64,000 nt of DNA from Fimbriimonadaceae bacterium (GTDB lineage: Bacteria > Armatimonadota > Fimbriimonadia > Fimbriimonadales > Fimbriimonadaceae). The stretch is taken from NCBI GenBank assembly GCA_036502005.1, contig DASXZH010000075.1, forward strand, positions 10,381 through 74,380, written 5' to 3'. A model generated the notes under the pieces. That model made no database searches. It was given only the letters and a program-made list of their open reading frames with translations, and was not told the DNA's origin. Shown piece by piece: positions 1,402 to 60,140 of the stretch (its first letter is position 1; each line of letters opens with the position of its first letter). Position numbers and translations under genes: made by a program.

Positions 1402-3432
1402 TTATGCTATCAGTTCTCTGGATTTAGTGAGGACTGCCGCGTTATAGGGAGCAATGCTGATGCTTCCCCACTTCTCGCTGGTTATTACTGTCGGCTCGGA
1501 AAGGGTGTTTAGCAAAAACAGCGTCTCGGAATCTTCGGCTTCCCTTTTCTTTGCCATCACGCCCATCGGAAGCTCGAAATCCACAACCGAAGAGACTCCC
1601 GCAGCTCTAGCCAACTTGGAAAGGAGCACATCCAGCAAGGCTGTCTCCGTGCGAGCGGCAAGATAATAAGCGACCCCGGCGCCAAATTTATTTCCTGTAA
1701 CAGCCGGGCTTCCGGCGTAAAACTCACCCCGGAACACTGCCAACGGCTCCGCCGTGGTGGGGTGGACGATTTCACAGAACTCGGTGGCCTGAAACTGTCC
1801 CGCAACACCTAGGGAGTTTTCTCCCAAGAAGTCCACCGAATTGGTTTGATCTTTATAGAGAGCATCTAATTCCTCGCTGGTGAGACCAAGGAGTTCCGAC
1901 CAAGGCGCCAAGAACCCTCCCTCAAAGACGAGGCTGTTTTCATCAACCCACCCCGAAAGGTAGGTGGTGAGAAAATGCCCGCCATTCTTTACAAACCGTT
2001 TGACTTCTTCGATAAAGGTTGGCCGAAGGCTATAAGCCATAGGCGCGACCACCAGCTTATATCGATCCAGAGAATCGTCTTGCCCGACGATGTCGACAGA
2101 AACTCCGGCCTTTATCAAGGCCCGATAAAAATCGGGAACAGTTTCCTCGTATTTCTTGTCCCCTTGGATCGGGCCGCAAGCGGCTTCCAGCGCCCAACGG
2201 TTCTCCCAATCGAAAAGCAGCGCCACCTCGGATTTCACCGTGCTACCGGCCAAGTTATTAAAGGTATCGAGCTCAATACCTACTTCGCAGACTTCATCGA
2301 AAATTCGTGTGTTTGAACCTGAATGGCTTACCACCGCCCCGTGAAACTGCTCTTGCCCGCCCCGGGACTGTCGCCACTGAAAGTATTGCAGCCCATCCGC
2401 GCCGTGAGCCAGAGCGTGAAGGCTCTCAAACCGGTGCATACCCGGCCTCTTGAGGGCCATTACGTCGTACCAGTTGGCAGAACTAGGCGTGTATTCCATC
2501 AGGAGCCACGGCTTATCCGGTTTAAGGGACCTCATCAGGTCATGGCGAAAACCAACCGTGATCCAAGTTTGAGGATCGGTAAGCGGCTTTTTGGGAGCCG
2601 GGTAACTGTCCCAAGAAATGAAGTCCAGGTGCTTGGCCATTTTCCGATAGTCGAGGCCTGGATAGGTGCCCATCATGTTGGTGGTGATAGGAACGTCTGG
2701 CGTTAGCTCGCGCAATGGCTCCGCTTCGCTCAGCATAAAGTCGATCGTCTGATCTGTTACGAAGCGCTTCCAATCGACTGTTAAACCCTGCACCGCGGTT
2801 TCGCCATAAGGCGTTCCAGGTGGATCGATCTCGTCCCAGCTTCCGTAGGTGTGACCCCAAAACGCGGTCCAATAAGCGTGGTTCAAGGCGCCAAGATCGT
2901 TGTTAAATTTGGATCGCAGCCATTCCCTGAACTGCTCGATGCTGTCCTGGCTGTAATCCTCGCCGTTGTATTCATTAGAAAGGTGCCAGGCCAAAAGCCG
3001 CGGATGGTTACCATATCGCTCGGCTAGCTTTCGGTTGATTTCCCGCGTTTTTTCTCGGTACAAAGCCGAGCCGATGTTGAAGTTGACCCTGTTTCCATGT
3101 CTCTGCCGCACACCATTAGGGCGCGTACGCAACGTCTCCGGATACTTGTTGGAAAACCACGCGGGAGGCGCCGCGCTCGGAGTCCCGAGGATGAACCACC
3201 GCTCCCCTTTCGTCAGCTTGTCAACAACTTCATCGAACCAGCCAAAGTCATAAACTCCCTCACTCGGTTCCAGCTTTGCCCATGCAAACATCCCCATCGT
3301 CGCCACCGTGAAACGGGATTTCTGCATCAAACGCACATCTTCATCCCAAATCTCCGGAGTCCACTGCTCAGGGCAATAATCTCCGCCGTGCCAAAGACTA
3401 GGAAATTTAGGGTTTATATATGATTTGCGCAT
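1402..3432 (-). CDS. glycoside hydrolase family 42 beta-galactosidase
   Basis: 676 aa. HGGDYCPEQW near the N-terminus, WHLSNEY (acid/base Glu context) and LLMEYTPS (nucleophile Glu context) are GH42 hallmarks. Confidence 0.9.
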   Translation of the reverse strand: MRKSYINPKFPSLWHGGDYCPEQWTPEIWDEDVRLMQKSRFTVATMGMFAWAKLEPSEGVYDFGWFDEVVDKLTKGERWFILGTPSAAPPAWFSNKYPETLRTRPNGVRQRHGNRVNFNIGSALYREKTREINRKLAERYGNHPRLLAWHLSNEYNGEDYSQDSIEQFREWLRSKFNNDLGALNHAYWTAFWGHTYGSWDEIDPPGTPYGETAVQGLTVDWKRFVTDQTIDFMLSEAEPLRELTPDVPITTNMMGTYPGLDYRKMAKHLDFISWDSYPAPKKPLTDPQTWITVGFRHDLMRSLKPDKPWLLMEYTPSSANWYDVMALKRPGMHRFESLHALAHGADGLQYFQWRQSRGGQEQFHGAVVSHSGSNTRIFDEVCEVGIELDTFNNLAGSTVKSEVALLFDWENRWALEAACGPIQGDKKYEETVPDFYRALIKAGVSVDIVGQDDSLDRYKLVVAPMAYSLRPTFIEEVKRFVKNGGHFLTTYLSGWVDENSLVFEGGFLAPWSELLGLTSEELDALYKDQTNSVDFLGENSLGVAGQFQATEFCEIVHPTTAEPLAVFRGEFYAGSPAVTGNKFGAGVAYYLAARTETALLDVLLSKLARAAGVSSVVDFELPMGVMAKKREAEDSETLFLLNTLSEPTVITSEKWGSISIAPYNAAVLTKSRELIA

Positions 3433-4810: not shown

Positions 4811-5712
4811 CTATTGCTGGAAAGGAGGGCTTGCCTGATTCGTGCCCCAAAGCGGGTACATGGTTCCGCTCTTGGGATTTGAACCATCGTAGGGCCACAG
4901 GTTCCAAGCTGCTTCGTAACCGTAGGGTTCGAGCTGCGTGTTTGCGTAGCTGTGTGCATGAGAATCGCAGAAGGCTACGTTAGTGGTTCCGTTGTGAAGG
5001 CCGGTGTAAGCCGAGCCCCAGAACGTCGAACCGGGCCAGATGGAGTTATCAAGCGGGAAGTCCGTAATGAGAACCGCTTTCGCGGGAGAGATGATGCCAA
5101 CCGTCTCGCCGGCGGTTGGGAATCCGCCTCCGATATAGCCGGTCGATCCCACGGGAGCGTCTCCGGTATCCAGGTTTGCGCCCGCAATCGATCCTACTCC
5201 CGAAGAACTCGTACAGCCAGGGTTCCAACTCGATAGAACGGGATTGGGCAGGTAGTCCATTGGAGGATAGATATCGCTGAAATAGTTGTCGAGCCCTGAA
5301 TCGTAGGCAGTGCCGTAAATCGAAGTGCCTAGTCCGATGCAAGGGTCGCTCGGCGGGATCATCCAATAGTTGCCCGCGCCCCCGCGTCCTGCTCTACGTG
5401 CTGGGTTGTTCCCTGCGGATATGGGCTTGATGGGCATTTGAAAATGCCGCGACTCTTAACGTACGGCATCAAATAGGCCGCGAATAGATACCCGTGATAT
5501 CCGTTAGAGGCTGGGATCCAGTTATCGTAATCGTTAGCATACAGATAAACCGCGGTGCCGATCTGCTTGAGATTGGATAGACAAGAAGTTTTCTTTGCGG
5601 CGGCCTTTGCCTGGGCAAAAACCGGGAAGAGAATGGCCGCTAAAATCGCGATGATCGCGATTACGACGAGAAGTTCAATAAGCGTAAATGCGCTTTTTTT
5701 CTTTGGTTGCAT
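4811..5712 (-). pseudogene. prepilin-type N-terminal cleavage/methylation domain protein with H-X9-D(G/S)-type C-terminus; frame broken once
   Basis: ATG 5712 gives [36 protein letters not shown] (pseudopilin helix). That frame stops at 5359. A second frame, open from about 5456 to 4811, carries the remainder including HNGTTNVAFCDSHA. The overlap contains a C5 run (5379-5383). This could be an assembly indel. Confidence 0.7.
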
Positions 5713-24000: not shown

Positions 24001-24570
24001 CTATGCTCCAGCCGCCTGTGCAACTGCCATGCGTTTCGCCCTAACCTGGCCCATATGAGCCTCAACCGCCTGATTAAACAGCGAATCGCTCGGAATCAAG
24101 TTGTGCAAAGCGAAGTAACCAATGAGCTCGCCGCCGGCCTCGCCAAGCAAAGCTAGATTTTCCATCGATTCGTCGCTAACCTGCTCCTTTAGAAGCTTCC
24201 AACCTTCGCTGCTCACTAAGAATGAGAACGAGCTGCGGCCCGCCGTGCGGGTATAGATCTGCCAAACCATAACCACCCCTTCCGCGTTCTCACGCTGCTG
24301 AATCGTAACCCTATAGCGCTTATCGCGCGAGGTGTATTGAATCTGATAAGGCGTGAGTCTAAAGCAGGCAAACAGGCCGTCACGGGTGGAACAAGCCTGC
24401 CTCATAAGGATCATGAGCTTGTTAGAAAGCGAAGTTCCGCTCACTGGCTCGCGGCTATTTAAAAGCGGCCGTAACTCAGATAAAACAAGAATGGACCACG
24501 GGTGCTCAAACACCCGCGCTTGAACATCAAGCGCGCTGCAAAGGGAGGGGGAGAGAACGAGCGCTTTCAT
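24001..24570 (-). CDS. hypothetical protein (orphan, bracketed by repeats)
   Basis: 189-aa ORF with no recognisable motif. Coding-like composition. Flanked by heptamer arms on both sides. Confidence 0.5.
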   Translation of the reverse strand: MKALVLSPSLCSALDVQARVFEHPWSILVLSELRPLLNSREPVSGTSLSNKLMILMRQACSTRDGLFACFRLTPYQIQYTSRDKRYRVTIQQRENAEGVVMVWQIYTRTAGRSSFSFLVSSEGWKLLKEQVSDESMENLALLGEAGGELIGYFALHNLIPSDSLFNQAVEAHMGQVRAKRMAVAQAAGA

Positions 24571-56500: not shown

Positions 56501-56629
56501 CGCGTGATAAGTGATAGGAAATAAGTGATAGGTCCGGAGGGCCCTTCCCCTTGCGCTCCGGCGGAGGGGGAAGGGTTGCGATGGGGGTTTTTCGCTCCCT
56601 ATCACCTTTTACATATCACTTATCACGCG
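56501..56629. repeat. period-7 inverted arms (GTGATAA/GTGATAG) enclosing an inner G/C hairpin
   Basis: CGCGTGATAAGTGATAGGAAATAAGTGATAGG (56501-56532) versus CCCTATCACCTTTTACATATCACTTATCACGCG (56597-56629): 28 of 32 complementary. Inner stem CCCTTCCCC / GGGGGAAGGG. Confidence 0.75.
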
Positions 56630-56638
56630 CGAAGCGCG

Positions 56639-58036
56639 CTAAGGCGTTACCGTCGCTCGCGTTCGCTGAATAACCTGATCCAAGAAGGACGTGTTGTTCG
56701 GCGTTCGCTTAAGTAGCTTGATAAGCTGCTCGGTGGCTTCAACTGAACTATTCTGATTTGCCACCATTCGGTGCAATTGAACAACGCCATCCAGCTCATC
56801 CTTGTCGAATAGTTTCTCCTCGTGGCGAGTGGAGCTGCGCTTCACATCGATGGCGGGCCAGATTCGGCGCTCGGAAAGGTCGCGATCAAGCACGATTTCC
56901 ATGTTGCCGGTGCCCTTGAATTCTTCAAAGATGGCGTCATCCATTCGGCTTCCAGTATCGATCAAAGCAGATGCGATGACGGTTAACGAGCCACCCTCTT
57001 CAATGTTTCGGGCGGAGCCGAAGAATCGGCGCGGACGATACAAAGCGGAAGGATCCAAACCACCGCTAAGGGTTCGGCCCGAAGGGTTAATGGTCAAGTT
57101 AGAAGCGCGAGAAAGACGCGTAAGCGAATCCAACAGGATCACAACGTCTCGGCCTGCTTCAACCAAACGCTTGGCTTGCTCAAGGCAGAGTTCGGAAACG
57201 CGGATATGGTTTTCGGGCGGCTCATCGAACGTGGAGCTAATAACTTGGCCACGTACAGAACGGCGGAAGTCGGTAACTTCTTCAGGCCGCTCATCCACGA
57301 GCAGAACCATTAGGTAGCACTCGGGATGGTTGGCGGTGACGGCGTTGGCTATCGTCTTGAGAATCGTTGTCTTTCCAGCTTTTGGAGGAGACACGATGAG
57401 ACCGCGCTGGCCCTTACCGATCGGCGAGATGAGATCGATGATTCGAGCGACGATGTTGTCGCCCATGGTTTCCATCTTGATTCTCTCTTCAGGGTGAAGG
57501 GGCGTCAGTTCATCGAAGTTCTTTCGATGCTGCATTTCCGAAGAGGCAGTGGCGAGGTTGTTAACGCTCTCGACTCGGAGCATGCCCTGATACTTTTCGC
57601 CTTCCTTGGGCGGGCGCACCTGGCCATACACCATATCTCCTGGGCGTAAAGCAAAGCGCTTCACTTGAGATTGGGAAACGTAAACGTCTTGGTTGGAGGG
57701 CTGATAGTTATCGCGGCGCAAAAAGCCCCAGCCGTCGTTTAGAACTTCGAGAATGCCTCGGGCGTAAATAGCCCCTTGTTCGGCGTTTGTGAAGTTGAGA
57801 AGTTGCTCGATGACCTCATGTTTGGTCTTATCGGCGATGGAGATCTTGGCGGATTTTGCAGCCTTTGCAAGGTCTGCGGGCGCCAATTGGTCGAAATGAT
57901 TAAAATCCTGTTCTGGCAGCGCTTCTAAGTCTGATGCGTTGTCGGTTCTTGGGAGACCTTCGCGGGAACGGCCACGGCCGCGACGCTGGCCGCCGCCTCC
58001 GCCGTCCGACTTACGAGGTCGAAATTGATGAGTCAT
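56639..58036 (-). CDS. rho: transcription termination factor Rho with Arg/Gly-rich N-terminal extension
   Basis: RNA-binding RFALRPGDMVYGQVRPP, Walker A SPPKAGKTTIL, and a RecA-like C-terminal domain. The first ~35 aa are MTHQFRPRKSDGGGGGQRRGRGRSREGLPR. Confidence 0.9.
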   Translation of the reverse strand: MTHQFRPRKSDGGGGGQRRGRGRSREGLPRTDNASDLEALPEQDFNHFDQLAPADLAKAAKSAKISIADKTKHEVIEQLLNFTNAEQGAIYARGILEVLNDGWGFLRRDNYQPSNQDVYVSQSQVKRFALRPGDMVYGQVRPPKEGEKYQGMLRVESVNNLATASSEMQHRKNFDELTPLHPEERIKMETMGDNIVARIIDLISPIGKGQRGLIVSPPKAGKTTILKTIANAVTANHPECYLMVLLVDERPEEVTDFRRSVRGQVISSTFDEPPENHIRVSELCLEQAKRLVEAGRDVVILLDSLTRLSRASNLTINPSGRTLSGGLDPSALYRPRRFFGSARNIEEGGSLTVIASALIDTGSRMDDAIFEEFKGTGNMEIVLDRDLSERRIWPAIDVKRSSTRHEEKLFDKDELDGVVQLHRMVANQNSSVEATEQLIKLLKRTPNNTSFLDQVIQRTRATVTP

Positions 58037-58108: not shown

Positions 58109-58642
58109 TTAACCCTCGCGAAGAACTGCAATATAGGGAAGATTCCTATAACGTTCCGCGTAATCTAAACCATATCCTACCACAAACTCGTTTGGAATCT
58201 CGAATCCGACGAATTCAATCATCGCATCTCGTTCTCGAGCCTCAGGTTTGGAAAGCAAGGACGCAACTTTCAAAGATTTCGGCTTTCGGGTCAACAGCAA
58301 CTCTCTTAAGTGGCTGAGGGTTATCCCCGTGTCGACGATATCTTCAACGATAAGGACGTGCTTGTCCTCGATATTGATATCTAAATCTTTTCTAATTTGT
58401 ACGACGCCACTGGAAGACTTTTGGTTACCGTAACTGCTGACCTGCACAAAGTCTACGGTCACGTTCGGCCCAAGTTTCCGGCAGAGATCGGCTAGGAAGA
58501 GAAAAGATCCCTTTAAAACGGCTACGAGAAGCAAAGTCTCTGCGCCGTAGGTTTGGCGAATCGCATCCGCCATCTCTGAAATTTTATCGGAGATTTGCTG
58601 CTCAGAAATTAGGACATCTAACGATTCTGCCACCGCGGCCAT
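58109..58642 (-). CDS. hpt: hypoxanthine phosphoribosyltransferase
   Basis: Start at ATG 58642 (MAAVAESLDVLISEQQI). PRPP motif VLIVEDIVDTGITL and C-terminal VGYGLDYAERYRNLPYI. The 268-aa ORF version only adds translated heptamer repeats. Confidence 0.9.
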   Translation of the reverse strand: MAAVAESLDVLISEQQISDKISEMADAIRQTYGAETLLLVAVLKGSFLFLADLCRKLGPNVTVDFVQVSSYGNQKSSSGVVQIRKDLDINIEDKHVLIVEDIVDTGITLSHLRELLLTRKPKSLKVASLLSKPEARERDAMIEFVGFEIPNEFVVGYGLDYAERYRNLPYIAVLREG

Positions 58643-58677
58643 GGGATTTGTTAAAGTTACCACGTTTTGGGAAGCAA

Positions 58678-58962
58678 GTCGAAGGTCGAAAGTCGAAAGG
58701 CGAAAGCCGGACCGAAGAAAGGCGAAGGTTGAACTCGAAAGTCGAAAAGCGTAAGTCGAAGGTCGAAAGGCGAAAGGCGAAAGGCGTAAAGTCGAAGGTC
58801 GAAGGTCGAAGGTCGAAAGCCGGGCGGTGGAAAGGCGGAAAAGGCAGGCAAGGCAAATGCGGAGGCGCAATTCGTTAAAAACAAAGGCACTTTTAGTCTC
58901 CATCAGGTGTGGCACAAAGCCCCACCCTCGGCTTTCGACCTTCGACCTTCGACCTTCGACTT
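58678..58962. repeat. largest period-7 element: ~150-nt GTCGAAR/GGCGAAA array plus perfect 34-bp inverted repeat
   Basis: 16 in-phase heptamers from 58678, then one 1-nt slip, then more. AAGTCGAAGGTCGAAGGTCGAAGGTCGAAAGCCG (58789-58822) is the exact reverse complement of 58929-58962. The core is 106 nt. Confidence 0.9.
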
Positions 58963-59123
58963 CCTATTCCGGGCACCCATTCGCGCTTATCACTCGTATT
59001 ACTCCGTGTTATCTCTTGGCGCTTCCGAAAGCTTTTCAATCGAATTGCGAATGGACAAATCGACTCGGACCTGAGCACGTCATTAATAACAGGGCGCTTG
59101 AGCCCCATTTTGAGGAGACCAGT

Positions 59124-60140
59124 TTGAAAGTTTATTCAGTTATTGCCTTGGCCCTGGCTGCAGTCGCAACCTTTGCGCAAGTCGACCCGGCAAAGACCGT
59201 GCTTACAATAAATGGCGAGAACGTTAACGGTGCTGAATACTACCGCCGTATGGAGTTCCTTCCGGATGTTGGACGGGTGCTGGAAGGCGGCCACGTCGCT
59301 GTTTACCCACCCGGATTCCTCACGATCGTGCAACTGATTAACGAACATTTGGTGCTTCAGTTGGCTAAGCAGAAGGGCCTTATTCCCACGGATCAGGAAA
59401 TTGATAACACCCTTTCGGAAACAGAAGCGGCGGATCCGAATTTTAAATCCAGTTGGATCAACTCCGGCCGAACTGAGCCGGAACTTCGTGATCAGGTTCG
59501 TTTTCAGCTTATCCAGTTCAAACTAACCACTGAGGGCATCACCGTCTCCGATCAGGAAGTGGCCGATTTCTATCACAGCAGTTCGATTCCTGGACTAACG
59601 ACAGTGCCTCGCTCAGTAAAGATGAGTTTGATCGCAGTTAGAGACGACACCGGCATGAAAAAAGTTGACAGCGATCTTGCTGCAGGCAAGAGCTTCTCCG
59701 CCGTTGCCCATGATGAAAGTGCAGATGCCACCTCAGCGAACGGAGGCGAACTCGGAACCGTCGCCATCGACAATCTTCCGAAAGAGGTTGCCAATGCGGT
59801 AGACCACACACACCAGGGTGAAGTGACGGGCTGGGTTTCCGTTCCGGTTGGTACCAGCAGCGACGGAACCACGCCCCTTATGGTTCATGTGAAGTACTCT
59901 ATTGAGAGCAAAGAAGCGGAAAAGCATTTTGACTTCAACGACGCATTAAAAAGCCGTTTGCGCCGTTATCTTATGCTGAACAAAGGCAAGATAAAGAATG
60001 ATGTGGAGGTTGAACTTTCGGCGCTCCGAAAGACCTCCAAGATCGCCATCACTTCGCCAGAGTTTGCGAAGATGTATGAGCAGTTCATGAAGGAGTTTTT
60101 CCGGGAGTCCGTCACGACCAGCGGGGGCTCCGGAAGTTAG
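59124..60140 (+). CDS. SurA-like / parvulin-type peptidyl-prolyl isomerase, secreted
   Basis: TTG 59124 is preceded by GAGGAG. Signal peptide KVYSVIALALAAVATFAQ. A SurA-N-like chaperone region, then ANGGELGTVAIDNLPKEVANAV (rotamase-like). Confidence 0.65.
   Translation: MKVYSVIALALAAVATFAQVDPAKTVLTINGENVNGAEYYRRMEFLPDVGRVLEGGHVAVYPPGFLTIVQLINEHLVLQLAKQKGLIPTDQEIDNTLSETEAADPNFKSSWINSGRTEPELRDQVRFQLIQFKLTTEGITVSDQEVADFYHSSSIPGLTTVPRSVKMSLIAVRDDTGMKKVDSDLAAGKSFSAVAHDESADATSANGGELGTVAIDNLPKEVANAVDHTHQGEVTGWVSVPVGTSSDGTTPLMVHVKYSIESKEAEKHFDFNDALKSRLRRYLMLNKGKIKNDVEVELSALRKTSKIAITSPEFAKMYEQFMKEFFRESVTTSGGSGS

Follow-up and report, generated by a model that had tools for sequence, protein, structure and literature searches.

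A heptamer-armed inverted repeat between hpt and a SurA-like PPIase gene belongs to a genome-wide repeat family in a Fimbriimonadaceae bacterium

The window analysed here is a stretch of 64,000 nucleotides from a Fimbriimonadaceae bacterium of the Armatimonadota (assembly GCA_036502005.1, contig DASXZH010000075.1, positions 10,381 to 74,380 of the forward strand), and the element under study occupies positions 58678-58962 of it, in the spacer between the gene hpt and a divergent SurA-like PPIase gene. It is made of a long array of tandem heptamers and a perfect 34-bp inverted repeat around a unique core. We find it to be an unexceptional member of a class of dispersed repeats and not a dedicated regulator of hpt or of the PPIase gene. 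Comparison with the rest of the class shows it to be a large hairpin, lacking a gene, from a family of intergenic heptamer hairpins spread over the genome, and further indicates that it is probably the form, devoid of an open reading frame (ORF), of a cassette resembling the intervening sequences (IVS) of 23S rRNA.

Anatomy of the element at 58678-58962

The initial annotation, made from the letters alone, had described sixteen in-phase heptamers from 58678, a slip of one nucleotide and further units, and our parse agrees with it. The first eight units read GTCGAAG, GTCGAAA, GTCGAAA, GGCGAAA, GCCGGAC, CGAAGAA, AGGCGAA and GGTTGAA, and the last eight CTCGAAA, GTCGAAA, AGCGTAA, GTCGAAG, GTCGAAA, GGCGAAA, GGCGAAA and GGCGTAA; an extra A at 58790 then shifts the phase and is followed by three copies of GTCGAAG, one GTCGAAA and one GCCGGGC. 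Tandem Repeats Finder (TRF) reported this left array at 58676-58819 with a period of 7, 20.4 copies and 73% matches, together with a second, higher-order period of 70/77 nt, which reflects repeated arm-plus-junction modules such as GTCGAAR...GCCGGAC at 58678-58712. The right arm contains 3.9 perfect heptamer copies. The perfect inverted repeat claimed for the locus was recovered as well: its two 34-nt arms, 58789-58822 and 58929-58962, are 100% complementary and lie 106 nt apart. The arrays converge on the core, GTCGAAR reading into it from the left and YTTCGAC facing it from the right. The parts of the element are as follows.

58678 to 58789, no strand assigned: distal left array, partly degenerate, of 16 GTCGAAR / GGCGAAA-type heptamers (parse, TRF and direct-repeat family D1)
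58678 to 58712: internal copy of the arm-plus-junction module, (GTCGAAR)3 GGCGAAA GCCGGAC
58789 to 58822, no strand assigned: left, G-rich arm of the inverted repeat, AAGTCGAAGGTCGAAGGTCGAAGGTCGAAAGCCG (inverted-repeat pair I1)
58819 to 58825, no strand assigned: junction unit GCCGGGC, which closes the arm on the core side as a GC clamp and fits the family-wide GNCGG motif
58823 to 58928, no strand assigned: core (loop) of 106 nt, without ORF
58929 to 58962, no strand assigned: right, C-rich arm, CGGC + TTTCGAC + CTTCGAC three times + TT, the exact reverse complement of 58789-58822
58963 to 59123, plus strand: unique stretch of 161 nt from the right arm to the PPIase start, presumed to hold the PPIase promoter and leader, with a GAGGAG ribosome-binding site

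RNA folding of 58670-58975 gave predicted energies of -128 kcal/mol for the plus strand (z = -6.1) and -115 kcal/mol for the minus strand (z = -6.7), and none of 100 shuffled sequences folded as well as the element, in line with the very stable hairpin that had been anticipated. The predicted stem runs about 5 pairs beyond the 34 bp into the core (GGTGG/CCACC), and the GC clamp opposes GCCGGGC on the left to CGGC on the right. In its left half the core is purine-rich and resembles a heptamer array that has decayed, and in its right half the sequence is unique.

BLAST against the whole genome found a single copy of the core and no second copy of the unique spacer to its right, while the arm sequence matched hundreds of other sites. 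No Rfam covariance model matched 58400-59300 on either strand at E<=1. The expectation that the core would correspond to no known RNA or insertion sequence (IS) end was thereby upheld. A miniature inverted-repeat transposable element (MITE) or IS end was ruled out at this locus, where the core is unique and the arms are flanked by no direct repeat of the target-site duplication type. Since the core has no second genomic copy and most cores of the family are single-copy (see below), the hairpin as a whole is not a copied unit and not a MITE. A terminator scan of 58500-59250 revealed no short GC-rich hairpin with a U-tract, and the element sits between divergent genes.

Heptamer arrays and inverted pairs across the genome

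Rho relatives assign the genome to the Armatimonadota, family Fimbriimonadaceae. It (4.78 Mb in 98 contigs, 53% G+C) yielded 955 TRF rows of period 7, compared with 61 in a block-shuffled version and with 87, 181 and 207 rows at periods 6, 8 and 14; what counts as an array is set by the TRF thresholds. The array and its inverted repeat are real and non-random, and the initial annotation had likewise judged the perfect 34-bp stem unlikely by chance. Applying a crude ORF mask, we counted 668 of these 955 rows as wholly intergenic. We distinguished 170 canonical units, the commonest being GTCGAAA with 99 arrays, to which 33 arrays of GTCGAAG can be added. Merging produced 910 arrays with a median length of 28.5 nt, among which the array at 58678 ranks 6th-7th longest.

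Arrays were assigned to spacers with a crude longest-ORF gene map. On this map about one fifth of the intergenic regions carry an array. Arrays per region come to 0.22 in tandem, 0.19 in divergent and 0.24 in convergent spacers, and no preference among the three types was seen; nor did we detect any bias for the sense or antisense strand relative to transcription (200 vs 175). Arrays abut stop codons, 203 of 463 falling within -10 to +10 nt of the stop, and mostly keep 20-75 nt away on the start-codon side. A terminator-like enrichment at 3' ends was rejected, since divergent spacers have arrays just as often. The counts do not support the implied reading of a special structure bound up with two housekeeping promoters: the element is one of 910 arrays and of 148 inverted pairs (below), with all spacer types alike.

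In a draft of 98 contigs the element might in principle be an artefact of assembly, produced by collapse or by a chimeric join of repeats. The assembler does struggle with such arrays, in which 8 of 196 contig ends fall. The element, however, lies well within a long contig between stretches of unique sequence, a collapse would not produce its degenerate units and unique core, and the same architecture recurs in independent assemblies of other organisms. We regard an artefact as extremely improbable.

Neighbouring arrays with reverse-complementary units form 148 inverted pairs. Their cores measure 90 nt at the median, with quartiles at 57 and 159 nt, and the shorter of the two arms 27 nt, with quartiles at 23 and 32 nt. 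The polarity of the pairs is fixed within unit families: 36:0 for GTCGAAA, 18:1 for GATAGGT, 12:0 for AAGTGAT, 9:0 for AACTTAG and 8:0 for AAACGGT. Over all pairs the 5' arm has more G than C in 129 and less in 11, the G-rich strand reading 5' to 3' toward the core. Because an inverted repeat reads alike on both strands, this fixed polarity is a true property of the element. The inner ends of the arms are also alike: at the core-side ends of GTCGAAR arrays (n = 142) the next 5 nt are GCCGG in 31, GACGG in 24, GTCGG in 11 and GGCGG in 6, and this variant junction unit pairs with the CCGGC of the other arm to form a GC clamp. Cores were single-copy in 93 of 135 cases. Inverted pairs occur 43 times in 613 divergent spacers, 80 times in 1764 tandem spacers and 20 times in 526 convergent ones.

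With its 34 nt, the perfect stem at hpt/PPIase ranks 3rd of the 148, for a median of 13. The longest perfect run between two arms averaged 16.5 nt within a locus and 15.3 nt between loci of the same family (p = 0.17), and concerted evolution of the two arms was rejected on this comparison, the match within a locus being no better than between loci. Given the rank of the stem and the absence of a better match within loci, the perfection of the 34 bp is the upper tail of the family and not a design of the locus. The label 'flagship' given to the element is consequently justified by its size (3rd longest stem, 6th-7th longest array) and has to be given up as a mark of locus-specific design.

Two further observations concern the make-up of the arrays. 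Different unit families abut in one orientation, for example GGGGATA followed by GTCGAAR, by GNCGGAG and by the core, which suggests layered growth or nested insertion. Some longer cores also hold a separate dispersed repeat (C20:8110-8344, C23:2527-2843, C90:126826-127154 and others, on other contigs of the genome). Two of its copies are 86% identical over 153 nt, and it has more than 100 BLAST matches in the genome; it looks like a MITE-type element landing in or beside heptamer arrays.

S23p cassettes and a proposed origin of the hairpin family

A link with IVS-like cassettes emerged when a PF05635 profile (S23p, a four-helix-bundle family) was run against all ORFs of the genome, with Pfam confirmation. 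Seven loci were found, and five of them are tightly bracketed by inverted heptamer arrays.

C94:122039-122962: S23p cassette, bracketed; GTCGAAR arms with GCCGGAG / TCCGGC junctions as in the hpt/PPIase element
C94:140665-141185: S23p cassette, bracketed by inverted heptamer arrays
C82:12443-12939: S23p cassette, bracketed by inverted heptamer arrays
C52:30301-30961: S23p cassette, bracketed by inverted heptamer arrays
C93:27892-28541: S23p cassette, bracketed; the gene is broken, a half-length pseudogene
C95:3-665: S23p locus at a contig end, whose ORF continues into the array and thereby gains a repeat tail of about 14 aa
C69:30247-30660: S23p locus without TRF-detectable arms

Among the thousands of other genes, about 3 were found bracketed by inverted arrays, each lying between two separate hairpins. 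Inverted heptamer arms were also present around all six external PF05635 homologues whose contigs were fetched; the 160 other loci fetched contained no S23p gene. One of the external cassettes (L161) is the orthologue, in a sister species, of C94:122039-122962, with 74-81% nucleotide identity across the flanks. Its arms have 4 units each and the same junction, and one arm of the C94 cassette has lengthened to about 300 nt, with junction modules repeated along it. This comparison provides direct evidence for rapid arm expansion, and the lopsided arms at 58678-58962 parallel it. L168 and L169, from two genomes, have one cassette in common at one site, with 5 and 7.5 units per arm, respectively.

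In another of the six external cases, L162:1201-1739 (JGI metagenome contig Ga0394881_0000151), an armed S23p cassette fills the gap between leuC and leuD; as only about 10 nt remain on either side, the transcript of the leuC-leuD operon must cross it. Within the window, an orphan ORF of 189 aa (24001-24570, minus strand) is bracketed by arrays of the GCCTTAG/CCGAATG type; a Pfam search at E<=0.1 assigned it to no family, and it does not resemble S23p.

A candidate intervening sequence was also located in the 23S rRNA gene, which lies on the minus strand of contig C78 and was recognised by its conserved GAACTGAAACATCT, AGTAGCGGCGAGCGAA and TACCGTGAGGGAAAG motifs. Between the latter two, C78:157003-157125 (minus strand) contains a hairpin with arms of GTGACGR four times and GTCACGC four times, a loop of about 55 nt and a predicted energy of -60 kcal/mol. 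The stretch from AGTAGCGGCGAGCGAA to TACCGTGAGGGAAAG is about 180 nt longer than what we take to be the E. coli spacing. Placed by these motifs, the hairpin looks like an ORF-less intervening sequence within 23S. The genome also encodes RNase III (rnc, with PF14622, PF00636 and dsrm domains).

These observations can be joined in the following scheme. The hpt/PPIase hairpin would be an ORF-less IVS-like cassette, as S23p cassettes bear the same GTCGAAR arms and the same GCCGG/CCGGC clamp and their layout matches that of ORF-bearing IVS. Its arms would grow and shrink by slippage and segmental duplication, the left arm now having about 20 units with extra arm-plus-junction modules. Any transcript crossing the element, be it the hpt leader coming from the right, read-through on the PPIase side or an antisense RNA, would form a double-stranded RNA stem of at least 34 bp. 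We infer that RNase III would cut such a transcribed stem, with an effect on the neighbouring genes: the flanking transcripts would be uncoupled and the element would be harmless inside transcription units. Processing of this kind would explain why such elements are tolerated in operons and in rRNA.

A more far-reaching version can be put forward tentatively, as a possibility to which we give less than even weight. In it an IVS-like cassette is mobile, its autonomous members encode an S23p/Avd-like four-helix-bundle protein and the heptamer hairpins represent its non-autonomous form; the arms are laid down by a polar, templated process and the stem is removed by RNase III. Polar and templated deposition is proposed because the G-rich strand always faces the core and ends in the GNCGG clamp. 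If this were true, the long-unexplained STRR (short tandemly repeated repetitive) and heptamer repeats of cyanobacteria, Xanthomonas and other phyla would gain a definite origin and a mechanism that can be put to the test.

Several points weigh against reading the element as a gene-less IVS-like cassette. No S23p remnant was detectable in short cores, that of the hpt/PPIase element included, where the PF05635 profile had no match in six frames even at E<10; since this core carries no S23p trace, descent from an ORF-bearing cassette is not shown, and the shared arms could also come from cassettes inserting into pre-existing arrays. The spread of the arms to hundreds of loci has no explanation in the scheme. 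Arms are no better matched within a locus than between loci, so that these sequences do not demonstrate selection for arm pairing. Scans for sigma-70 promoters, with a tool and with our own script, gave nothing convincing (a weak match within the PPIase ORF and a second within the array), and the presence of both arms on one RNA is not established by them. Processing by RNase III would be pure inference, and the spacer statistics inherit the crudeness of the longest-ORF map.

Some of these points are what plain slippage would produce. In that account the arrays are a microsatellite built by the replicative polymerase, which slips preferentially by 7 nt (Mrazek's hypothesis, in the form in which PMC4692102 cites it), occupy the intergenic room that selection leaves over and have no link to S23p cassettes; inverted pairs arise by template switching, the hairpin is functionless, and S23p genes merely land in or by arrays. 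Abutment to stop codons and distance from start codons are what space filling predicts, and the equal frequency in all spacer types, the great shifts of arm length between sister species, the lack of a better match within loci and the cores without S23p remnant all agree with it. Independent slippage is however insufficient to make the same unit and GNCGG junction recur at 72 of 142 inner array ends. Nor does it account for the absolute polarity (36:0, 18:1, 12:0), for the narrow range of the shorter arm, or for the position of S23p genes exactly between inverted arms in 5 of 7 internal and 6 of 6 external cases. We consider slippage by itself rather unlikely.

The element could alternatively act at the level of DNA, as a cruciform or as a binding site for a nucleoid or topology protein, giving supercoiling or replication punctuation between the hpt and PPIase promoters. 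BIME (bacterial interspersed mosaic element) and REP (repetitive extragenic palindromic) sequences, for instance, bind gyrase and IHF. The perfect 34-bp inverted repeat and the strong predicted folding of both strands would suit such a role, three heptamers would amount to two helical turns, and inverted pairs are somewhat commoner per divergent spacer, where no RNA 3' end is needed. Extrusion of a cruciform is nevertheless kinetically unfavourable with a loop of 106 nt, 170 different units speak against one sequence-specific binding protein, and the occurrence of the same architecture inside operons and 23S rRNA points to tolerance at the RNA level. A role at the DNA level is accordingly judged a poor candidate, and the ORF-less IVS-like cassette is the reading that we carry forward in the comparisons below.

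Known repeat systems, relatives and flanking genes

The closest published counterparts of the inverted pairs are the GGGAATC heptamer repeats of Xanthomonas, which are strongly over-represented, intergenic and able to form G-quadruplexes (Rehm et al. 2015, PMC4692102). Many of these arrays belong to convergent pairs on opposite strands, capable of forming stem-loops, of which a genome has 70-75; close species keep the site and the single or paired type and differ in array length and sequence, and most arrays are transcribed (PMC4692102). The 148 pairs described here share with them intergenic tandem heptamers and close, convergent arrays of the same unit on opposite strands. They differ in that Xanthomonas, a gammaproteobacterium, uses one G-tract unit with G-quadruplexes, whereas this member of the Armatimonadota uses about 170 units, most of them without G-runs; GTCGAAG and GTCGAAA have no GGG run and cannot form a G-quadruplex. 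A link with S23p cassettes is unreported in PMC4692102.

The arrays also resemble the STRR sequences and long heptanucleotide simple sequence repeats (SSRs) of heterocystous cyanobacteria and other bacteria in their period of 7, their several unit families, their intergenic position and their restriction to lineages. We indeed observe 7-nt units arranged head to tail, and period 7 exceeds both its neighbouring periods and the chance level, for the most part in intergenic DNA. The Calothrix heptanucleotides were reportedly described by Mazel in 1990 and heptameric SSRs by Mrazek in 2007. Heptanucleotide repeats of Calothrix PCC7601, a 2007 report of over-represented heptameric SSRs and polymerase slippage as the proposed generator of heptamer repeats are all known to us as cited in PMC4692102. 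STRR sequences are mainly direct arrays, with few pairs in Nostoc according to the account given in PMC4692102, whereas here about 30% of the period-7 arrays (282 of 955) stand in polar inverted pairs with a GC-clamp junction. The TAACTGA direct repeats of marine Beggiatoaceae, cyanobacteria and Bacteroidetes, in 2-6 and up to 43 copies, are likewise abundant intergenic heptamers, of phylogenetically patchy spread (MacGregor 2015, PMC4679880). They consist of a single unit, include one indirect repeat among 170 sets and lie just upstream of start codons (PMC4679880), in contrast with the many units, common inverted pairs and stop-codon abutment seen here.

The IVS of Coxiella burnetii 23S rRNA has a terminal stem of 28 bp and an S23p ORF and is excised by RNase III (Warrier et al. 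2016, PMC4990558); the loop of an IVS may carry an S23p/PF05635 ORF, which tends to decay (PMC4990558). The hpt/PPIase element has a comparably long terminal stem around a loop, its 34 perfect pairs plus about 5 exceeding the minimum of at least 20 bp, and in the same genome both S23p genes and the 23S-internal hairpin carry heptamer arms. It differs from an IVS in being intergenic, outside the 23S gene, and in having neither a PF05635 ORF nor any ORF remnant; published IVS stems, for their part, are not described as heptamer arrays. We should also consider the REP and BIME elements of Proteobacteria and the REP doublets forming hairpins (REPINs).

Such elements are short and extragenic, number hundreds per genome, often form hairpins as inverted doublets and are transcribed with their neighbours. 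A REP unit is a single imperfect palindrome whose sequence is conserved, REPIN copies share their spacer sequence too, and a RAYT transposase is associated with the units. The present family is similar in its hundreds of extragenic elements and inverted hairpin doublets, and dissimilar in that its arms are tandem 7-mers instead of palindromic REP units and its cores are unique. The library of papers searched holds none that joins Fimbriimonas with 'tandem repeat'. The class itself is already known; what appears new is its occurrence in Armatimonadota with many units that form no G-quadruplex. With arrays in about one fifth of its intergenic regions, this genome adds a new phylum to a question, the origin of STRR-type repeats, open since about 1990, together with new constraints: polarity, clamp junction, stems of 23-32 nt, stop-codon abutment and arms shared with S23p cassettes and with the hairpin inside 23S rRNA.

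In most relatives heptamer arrays do not rise above background: 278 kb of metagenome loci gave 13 period-7 rows, a number close to those for periods 6 and 8, and 35 genome loci gave about 5. The nearest relative compared (L031, whose Rho is 83% identical) is rich in them, with 9 rows in 9.4 kb, and has other units: its arrays (3343-3372 and 5381-5508) comprise CGTAAAT four times immediately upstream of hpt and an AAGGATG/TCATCCT inverted pair that begins at the stop codon of rho. Arrays hence stand at the same gene boundaries as in the window, with unrelated units and different outer neighbour genes. Short arrays just upstream of the hpt match were also present in the distant metagenome loci L128 and L130. 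The heptamer-array trait is thus restricted to a lineage in which sites recur and units turn over. Look-ups of the exact Hpt and PPIase proteins for other strains returned no record, and a metagenome scan with Hpt gave a best match of 74% identity and no near-identical strain.

The genes on either side of the element are the following.

58109 to 58645, minus strand: hpt, hypoxanthine/guanine phosphoribosyltransferase, 178 aa (Pfam PF00156, E = 4e-29)
59124 to 60140, plus strand: SurA-like PPIase gene, 338 aa with signal peptide, divergent from hpt (Pfam Rotamase / SurA_N)

With starts at 58645 for hpt and 59124 for the PPIase gene, the spacer is 58646-59123, or 478 nt, which corrects the 481 nt given at first. 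Relatives of Hpt begin to align at residue 5-9 of the 178-aa protein, and this supports both the start at 58645 and the spacer length. The longest hpt ORF (58109-58915, minus strand, GTG start, 268 aa) reads through the whole heptamer array, since (Y)TTCGAC repeats are stop-free in every frame; judged by the same alignments, which favour the 178-aa form, it is a false extension. Gene callers could over-extend hpt here, and in practical terms such arrays can extend ORF calls as well as break short-read assemblies.

The first heptamer (58678) lies 32 nt from the hpt start codon and the TRF array start (58676) 30 nt from it, and since the array begins at only about 30 nt it must be part of the hpt promoter or 5' leader. 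A leader attenuator, an operator array, a phase-variable promoter spacer or some other regulator specific to the locus, acting on hpt, on the PPIase gene or on both, could draw on this proximity, as length changes would alter the leader. About 900 similar arrays beside unrelated genes and the lack of an Rfam match count against it; moreover, among the hpt-rho relatives of the Armatimonadota a clear array upstream of hpt was found in the closest only, with the different unit CGTAAAT four times. We regard such a regulator as very unlikely.

The PPIase gene adjoins hpt in no relative (loci L001-L036). The pair formed by hpt and rho, which follows it downstream and has its stop codon at 56639-56641, is conserved across Armatimonadota loci, and a sibling of the element is found beside it.

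56503 to 56629, no strand assigned: sibling element by rho, with GTGATAR / YTATCAC arms and a TCCGGAGG junction (sequence and TRF)

A short GC hairpin (GCGCG-AAG-CGCGC) separates this sibling from the stop codon of rho, which is about 10 nt away.

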